A stretch of DNA of 64,000 nucleotides from Escherichia coli (GTDB lineage: Bacteria; Pseudomonadota; Gammaproteobacteria; Enterobacterales; Enterobacteriaceae): assembly GCF_003334405.1 (NCBI RefSeq), contig NZ_QOWM01000001.1; one strand, written 5' to 3'. Below are positions 12,651-14,173 of this stretch, piece by piece; within the stretch, counting starts at the first letter, position 1, and each line of letters opens with the position of its first letter. The position numbers and the translations under genes were made by a program. Under the pieces are notes generated by a model, which saw only the letters and a list, made by a program, of their open reading frames with translations, did no database searches and was not told where the DNA came from.

Positions 12651-14114
12651 TTACATCTTGGTATAAGGCTTAAAGCGTTCCTGCAGCTGGCGCAACTGGT
12701 CGATGCGCGCATCGTAACGCGCTTGTTGCAGGCTGCCTAATTTCACCTGCGAACTGGCGCTACTCAACAGCGAAATGGCCTGATCGAGTCGTCCGGCGAG
12801 CGCATAACCTTCTGCTCGCGCAGCCAGCTCCTGATCGCGGTTATTTAGCGCGGCTTCCGCCTGTGCCAGCAAATCCCAGCCGTTGCTGTCATCTTTATTA
12901 TTAAAGGTGTAGCGATTCAGAATATTGGCCGCTTCTTGTGGTTGACCGCCTTGCAAATAAGCGTTCGCCAGGTTGAGCTGCAACACCGGATTGGTGCGTA
13001 AATCGCGGGCATTTTTCAGACGATTGATCGCCTCATTGGCTTTGTTTTGCCCAAGATCGATATCAGTAGCCAGATCGAGATACCATGCGTTGCCAGGTTC
13101 TGCCGCCAGTAACGGTTGCAGCGTTTTACGCGCCTCGTCGTATTTATTGGCTTCCATCGCCTGTAAAGCACGACCATATTGTGCTGCTCGTTGCTGACGA
13201 ACGTTTCCTTTCGCCCATTCATCCAGCAAATCACTGGTGAGCTGGTTACGTCCGGAATTATACATCCCCAGTGTGCGCGCTTTCGCCAGATAGAAATCTT
13301 CCGACGACTGCACCACCATCGGGCGCATCTGATTAGCACGGTTGCGGGCATCTGCCAGACGACTTTCCGGCAACGGGTGAGTCAATAAAATTTCCGGCGG
13401 GCGCGAGGAGTAACGCGCCTGATCGAGTAATTTTTCGAGGAAGGTTGGCATCGCCTGCGGATCGAATCCCGAGCGTTGCAGCACCTGAATACCAATGCGG
13501 TCCGCTTCCTGTTCATTTTGCTGGGTGAAACTGATCATCCCCTGACGCGTTCCCGCCAGTGTACCGGTCAGCGCCGCCATCCCCGCCTGCGGACTGGCCA
13601 TCGCCAGTAAAATAGAACCTAACGCGCCGACCCAGGTCAGCGGCGCGCTGCGCTGCTGATCTTCCATCGCTCGCGCCAGGTGACGTTGGGTGACGTGGGA
13701 GATTTCGTGCGCCATAACTGAAGCCAGTTGACTTTCGTTATCGGAATAACGGAACAGGGCAGAGTGCAGCACCACGTTGCCGCCAAAGAAAGCAAAGGCG
13801 TTAATTTCGTCGTTGTTGATCAGAAAAAAATGAAACGGTGTCTTAACCGAATTGGCATGCGAAACCAGACGCATCCCCAGCGAATTAATATATTGCGTTA
13901 ACAGCGGGTCATTAATTAACGGCGCGCTGCCGCGTAGCTGGCGGACATAATAGTCGCCCATCTGCATTTCCTGACCAATGGAAAGCGTGCTTCCTGCGGA
14001 GGTTCCCATATCCGGCAAGGTGTCTGCGCTGTCGGCAAACGCCGGGGCTACCTGACCAATGGTCATAGCAGCAATGAGGGTTGCAACCAGGTTTTTTTTC
14101 AACTGCCTGAACAT
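12651..14114 (-). CDS. bepA: Beta-barrel assembly-enhancing protease BepA (M48 zinc metalloprotease with TPR domain)
   Basis: 487 aa; signal peptide; [10 protein letters not shown] zinc-binding motif; C-terminal TPR-like repeats. Confidence 0.9.
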
Positions 14115-14145
14115 AACCTCTATCCTGTATTTCTGGAGATAGTCA

Positions 14146-14173
14146 TTTGACCGATACTGTGAAATATCGTTCC
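14146..14173 (-). promoter_or_regulatory. Candidate sigma-E promoter for bepA
   Basis: Reverse strand reads GGAAC-(17 nt)-GTCAAA, matching the sigma-E consensus GGAACTT-N16-TCTGA/TCAAA, about 30 bp upstream of the bepA ATG. Confidence 0.45.

Follow-up and report, generated by a model that had tools for sequence, protein, structure and literature searches.

The probable sigma-E promoter of the bepA-yfgD operon is conserved in most Enterobacteriaceae loci compared

Among described systems, the one closest to the site analyzed here is the sigma-E-dependent transcription unit yfgC-yfgD in E. coli K-12 (Rhodius et al. 2006, PLoS Biol 4:e2), with which the bepA site shares the genome, the operon and the regulator. 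In a later microarray study, yfgC and yfgD (2.4-fold and 1.5-fold) were up with pZE21-rpoE (PMC2731931, Table 2), and both genes carry there the flag "Rh", which indicates that Rhodius et al. 2006 had reported them as sigma-E regulated. A tagRNA-seq study called bepA-yfgD a sigma-E-dependent bicistronic operon (PMC7075262), and later papers have placed BepA in the sigma-E regulon. The protein is known from the literature as a periplasmic M48 metalloprotease that serves as a quality-control factor at the BAM complex.

The part of Rhodius et al. 2006 that defines the promoter (PMC1312014) uses GGAACTT, TCAAA and an A/G start as the reference points from which distances are measured. According to this part, the −35/−10 spacer is 15-19 nt with 16 strongly preferred, the discriminator is 5-6 nt, the distance from −35 to +1 is 26-27 nt with a purine at the start, and an A/T-rich UP-like region in the 30 nt upstream of −35 is frequent, though not obligatory. 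Except for the A/T-rich region, this architecture, as given there, is common to the bepA site.

A second relative is found in Salmonella Typhimurium 14028s, where sigma-E ChIP-seq gave a 63-bp peak at 2,659,436..2,659,499 between perM (yfgO) and STM14_3058, and perM was listed among the sites carrying an upstream sigma-E consensus (PMC4577112). This "perM; STM14_3058" site is like the bepA site in lying in a gap next to a divergent perM and in having a sigma-E consensus, and the Salmonella one is occupied in vivo. It differs in belonging to another species, and that study did not name the neighbor as yfgC/bepA. Judging from synteny, STM14_3058 would be the bepA orthologue, and the Salmonella peak would cover the homologous motif.

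A third relative lies in the same 64-kb stretch of E. coli DNA that we analyzed (hereafter the window). The sequence GGAACTTAACGCGTGTAAACCAGATCAAA at 30941..30969 on the plus strand has the full sigma-E consensus, GGAACTT followed after 17 nt by TCAAA, and is located inside dapA (30448..31326), about 368 nt before bamC (ATG at 31343). Upon rpoE overexpression bamC and purC rose 3.1-fold and 2.4-fold while dapA was unchanged (PMC2731931), which fits a promoter internal to dapA, and the site is probably the known sigma-E promoter of nlpB/bamC. Like the bepA site, it is a two-block sigma-E element in front of a gene for an outer-membrane-protein assembly factor. The dapA-internal site differs in its complete GGAACTT, in a spacer of 17 nt as against 16 nt, in a leader of about 368 nt as against 26 nt, and in its location within an upstream coding sequence; the bepA site, with GGAACGA, is intergenic. 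Elsewhere in the window, Rfam naRNA4 (CssrE, a REP-derived nucleoid-associated RNA) matched at 37151..37227 on two strands (92.7 and 61.5 bits) and at 61939..62020 on the plus strand (71.8 bits), all above the gathering score; these matches are most likely ordinary REP/BIME clusters.

The bepA region of the window is E. coli K-12 sequence. The 2.3 kb around the motif show 100% identity with MG1655 and are present in 5,426 of 5,426 complete E. coli genomes with the genes annotated as bepA, arsC/yfgD and yfgO, and a 6-kb MG1655 stretch (2,613,500-2,619,500) is an exact match to the reverse complement of the window, so that a window coordinate converts as MG1655 coordinate = 2,616,094 + (14114 − window coordinate). 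The features to which we refer below are as follows.

12651..14114, minus strand: bepA (yfgC, b2494) coding sequence, 487 aa, with its ATG at 14114 and its stop codon at 12653..12651.
12271..12630, minus strand: yfgD (b2495), which encodes an ArsC-family protein and follows bepA in the operon, its start lying 20 nt beyond the bepA stop codon.
From 14327, plus strand: yfgO (perM), divergent from bepA.
14167..14173, minus strand: probable sigma-E −35 element GGAACGA (consensus GGAACTT), with the core GAAC at 14172..14169.
14146..14151, minus strand: GTCAAA, the probable −10 element for sigma-E; its consensus part TCAAA (14150..14146) is separated from the 7-mer −35 by 16 nt.
14140 (MG1655 2,616,068), minus strand: predicted sigma-E transcription start, an A, from spacing and conservation, giving a 26-nt leader.
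14115..14128, minus strand: ACAGGATAGAGGTT, the ribosome-binding region, which abuts the bepA ATG.

The open reading frame at 12651..14114 is BepA, an M48 zinc metalloprotease that carries a TPR domain at its C terminus. It matches the NCBIfam equivalog NF052400 (M48_BAM_BepA) over residues 1-483 of 487 with 742.6 bits against a cut-off of 570, and RefSeq names it bepA in each of the 5,426 complete genomes of E. coli. The translation contains the zinc motif H136-E137-I-S-H140 (HExxH) and begins with a hydrophobic signal-like segment ending in AFA, and TPR-family models match residues 309-433. In a consensus scan, the minus strand showed nothing like an intrinsic terminator either between bepA and yfgD or after yfgD, and an Rfam search gave no match in or near the locus. 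Instead of a canonical intrinsic terminator for the bepA-yfgD operon, the gap between the convergent yfgD and hda (12135..12275, minus strand) holds two REP-like palindromes, GCCGGATGCG...CTTATCCGGCCTAC and its inverted partner, with a very stable predicted RNA fold (−54.9 kcal/mol, z −4.7).

The earlier note on this DNA had pointed to a GGAAC-N17-GTCAAA arrangement on the reverse strand upstream of bepA, and this is present exactly as claimed at 14173..14146, which corresponds to MG1655 2,616,035-2,616,062: on the minus strand, GGAAC (14173..14169) is followed by the 17 nt GATATTTCACAGTATCG (14168..14152) and GTCAAA (14151..14146). When the site is parsed by the published definition, it reads GGAACGA, 16 nt, TCAAA, the 5-nt discriminator TGACT and an A at 14140. 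The −35 agrees with GGAACTT at 5 of 7 positions, GA standing in place of the final TT, and the −10 agrees with TCAAA at all five. The spacer, 14166..14151, has the preferred length of 16 nt, and at the sequence level a suitable start is found in the A at 14140, a purine located at the preferred distances of 5 nt from TCAAA and 26 nt from GGAACGA. The only one of the five sequence features of sigma-E promoters that is missing is the A/T-rich upstream region, since A+T makes up 37% of the 30 nt that precede the −35 and 47% of the window. The start near 14139 that the note had named is one base off the one predicted here. The lack of an A/T-rich region predicts a weaker promoter, to which membership in the sigma-E class would still be open; with a −35 devoid of TT and 30 G+C-rich nucleotides upstream of it, the promoter would be of modest strength.

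Within the window the arrangement is rare. GGAAC-N17-GTCAAA occurs once in the 64 kb on both strands together, and 0.05 copies are expected from dinucleotide-preserving shuffles, of which 5 of 100 contained at least one match; because the pattern was picked after the site had been seen, this figure alone is weak evidence. Relaxed sigma-E consensus patterns gave 1-4 matches each in the window, and the bepA site is among the matches of four of the five patterns; the fifth requires GAACTT, which is absent from it.

To see which positions are kept in related species, we scanned species-representative genomes with BepA and obtained 80 Enterobacteriaceae loci with 84-99% protein identity, which include Escherichia, Citrobacter, Enterobacter, Klebsiella, Raoultella, Kluyvera, Kosakonia, Buttiauxella and Cedecea. 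The gene order is stable: a yfgO homologue lies divergently upstream of bepA in 79 of the 80, and a yfgD homologue follows on the same strand in all 80, mostly only about 9-20 nt away. GAAC-N17-GTC is kept in 76 of the 80 loci, 57-62 nt before the ATG, and in those the 17-nt gap is invariant. Among the 76, the −35 block reads TGAAC in 32, GGAAC in 31, CGAAC in 12 and AGAAC in 1, and the −10 block reads GTCAAA in 65 and GTCGAA in 7, with four other variants found once each.

The 80 upstream sequences, all of them distinct, were aligned, and conservation was taken column by column. GAAC is conserved at 96-100% and GGTCAAA at 82-97% (TCAAA 86-97%, the G at 14152 82%), while the spacer between them is at 31-71% and constant in length. 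The first G of GGAAC is conserved at only 42%. The A at 14140 stands at 93% among neighbors at 44-71%, and is an A in 65 of the 76 loci. Further downstream, the ribosome-binding region 14115..14128 is 69-100% conserved apart from 14122, where E. coli has a minority T and the commonest base is C (80%). Redundancy was then reduced to a set of 28 sequences sharing less than 75% identity in the 150 nt upstream. In this set, mean conservation was 0.946 at the ten positions of the motif, as compared with a background of 0.52 (sd 0.20), and the motif layout came first when 108 shifted layouts with its shape were ranked. A two-block promoter is expected to leave just such a signature, with conserved blocks flanking a spacer that diverges in sequence and keeps its length.

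Four loci depart from this pattern: L041 and L056 are without the element, L052 is degenerate and L057 has 18-nt spacing. As the motif is lost or altered in these four, sigma-E input to bepA would not be universal in the family. In L041 and L056 (Escherichia sp. ESNIH1 type), the sigma-E element and a TACACT hexamer described below are both lost, and an upstream GGAAACT segment is joined straight to the leader, about 90 nt upstream of bepA. The degenerate form (GAAAT...GCTCATA) and the 18-nt gap, there with TCATA, were each seen in a Kosakonia locus.

Taken with the published data, we consider the element at 14173..14146 on the minus strand to be the sigma-E (RpoE) promoter of the bepA-yfgD operon, with a probability of roughly 0.92. 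Counted against this reading as caveats were the small size of the induction (2.4-fold), the imperfect −35 with its variable first G, the lack of an A/T-rich upstream region and the four deviating loci. Three other explanations were weighed, of which the one that survives best, though very unlikely, is that the resemblance arose by chance and that bepA-yfgD depends on sigma-E indirectly or through a site elsewhere. The pattern was, as stated, chosen post hoc and appeared in some of the shuffled windows, and several sigma-E-induced genes have no consensus and are maybe regulated indirectly (PMC2731931). However, a chance match does not sit well with blocks that are the most conserved positions of the intergenic region, invariantly spaced around a diverged spacer in 76 of 80 loci, nor with the absence of any second GAAC...TC.AA arrangement on either strand of the bepA-yfgO gap; moreover, the gap that is homologous by synteny in Salmonella has a sigma-E ChIP peak with a consensus.

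Conservation reveals constraint and does not reveal the binder, so the same footprint could in principle belong to a different sigma factor or to a transcription factor with half-sites GAAC and GTCAAA. We regard this as more improbable still, because both blocks, the distance between them and the purine conserved downstream all agree with what sigma-E prefers. To our knowledge, the element is unlike the consensus of sigma-32, sigma-28 or sigma-54. The operon, in addition, responds to rpoE overexpression (PMC2731931), and sigma-E occupies the gap in Salmonella whose homology follows from synteny (PMC4577112). That the sigma-E site serves the divergent yfgO (perM) and not bepA deserves as little credence: although the Salmonella peak was labelled "perM; STM14_3058" with perM listed as carrying the consensus upstream, and a reversed consensus was argued to be able to activate, with ompX cited (PMC4577112), the motif is oriented toward bepA with its −10 ending 32 nt from the bepA ATG while the yfgO ATG is 154 nt off on the opposite strand, the plus strand of the gap has no sigma-E-like site, and yfgO is absent from the genes changed by rpoE, among which yfgC and yfgD are present (PMC2731931).

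The yfgO side of the gap has a feature of its own. A perfect 6-3-6 palindrome, ATTGCG-ATC-CGCAAT, lies at 14283..14297, about 30 nt before the yfgO start codon, and overlaps a plus-strand TACAAT hexamer; it may serve as an operator or form a hairpin at the 5′ end of the yfgO mRNA.

Returning to the sigma-E promoter of bepA-yfgD, its assignment is established knowledge, as sigma-E control of this operon has been published since 2006. We infer with high confidence that the site is identical with the published yfgC sigma-E promoter. Between the two there is probably no difference, their positional identity following from the conserved footprint and from there being no other candidate; a full-text search of the accessible literature returned nothing relevant on the yfgC/bepA promoter sequence or on MG1655 coordinates 2616066-2616069. 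The fit to the sigma-E consensus that the earlier note saw is borne out by four of the five features and by the two blocks being the best-conserved positions of the bepA-yfgO gap in the 80 loci. The envelope-stress control that it proposed for bepA agrees with the place of the operon in the sigma-E regulon and with the response of both genes to rpoE overexpression; the measurement of the bepA transcript under that treatment, which it suggested, was already in print (PMC2731931).

The regulation would then work as follows. In the established pathway, unfolded outer-membrane proteins lead DegS and RseP to degrade the anti-sigma factor RseA, which sets sigma-E free; the release of sigma-E from RseA by envelope stress is also stated in a figure legend of Rhodius et al. 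(PMC1312014). From sequence and conservation, sigma-E holoenzyme would recognize GGAAC as −35 and TCAAA as −10 over the 16-nt spacer and would start transcription at or next to the A at 14140. The product would be an mRNA that encodes BepA and YfgD behind a 26-nt leader, in which the conserved ribosome-binding region 14128..14115 would be contained. According to the literature, induction of the operon is about 2-fold when sigma-E rises, and the promoter is presumably of modest strength.

Basal expression may also come from a hexamer, TACACT at 14195..14190, located about 20 nt upstream of the sigma-E element, and this hexamer belongs to the following feature.

14190..14218, minus strand: candidate second bepA promoter, TTGAGT-17 nt-TACACT, of sigma-70 or sigma-S type, with its hexamer at 14195..14190.

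In the 80-sequence alignment, the positions of the TACACT hexamer are 75-96% conserved. We counted hexamers in the 77 sequences that have the sigma-E blocks, namely the 76 loci and the window: TA[C/A]ACT occurs in 67 of them and the broader TAnAnT in 73, and of these 73 a G at −14 is found in 68 and a C at −13 in 43. The extended element G-C/T-TACACT at 14197..14190 resembles a −10 of the sigma-S/sigma-70 type. The matches of this second element to a −35 are weak (2-4 of 6), and a sigma-70 consensus scan reported no promoter-like site in the bepA-yfgO gap, as TTGAGT-17-TACACT scores 8 of 12 against a threshold of 9. The distance from the hexamer to the sigma-E −35 is variable, being 14-23 nt in all but five loci. 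On these sequence grounds, TACACT may be an independent −10-like hexamer and a candidate promoter of sigma-70 or sigma-S type. We found no description of the element in the accessible literature, and it may already be contained in RegulonDB or in genome-wide start-site maps. Because of this second −10-like element, a bepA start mapped elsewhere than 14140 would not by itself speak against the sigma-E promoter.

It is tempting to extend this to tandem bepA promoters conserved across Enterobacteriaceae, of which the upstream one would fire through the sigma-E site, and we hold this view only tentatively, at a little short of even odds.

As a discovery the sigma-E promoter carries little weight, since papers on BepA routinely cite sigma-E control of yfgC/bepA, which has been on record since 2006. 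What is gained is support from 80 genomes, at the level of single bases, for the nucleotides that form the promoter, a predicted start at a defined MG1655 position, and a second, separately conserved −10-like element that may supply basal expression. If TACACT acts as a promoter, the basal expression of BepA would be explained, and if the tandem arrangement is true, the level of BepA would be set by growth phase or housekeeping transcription, with envelope stress adding only about 2-fold.
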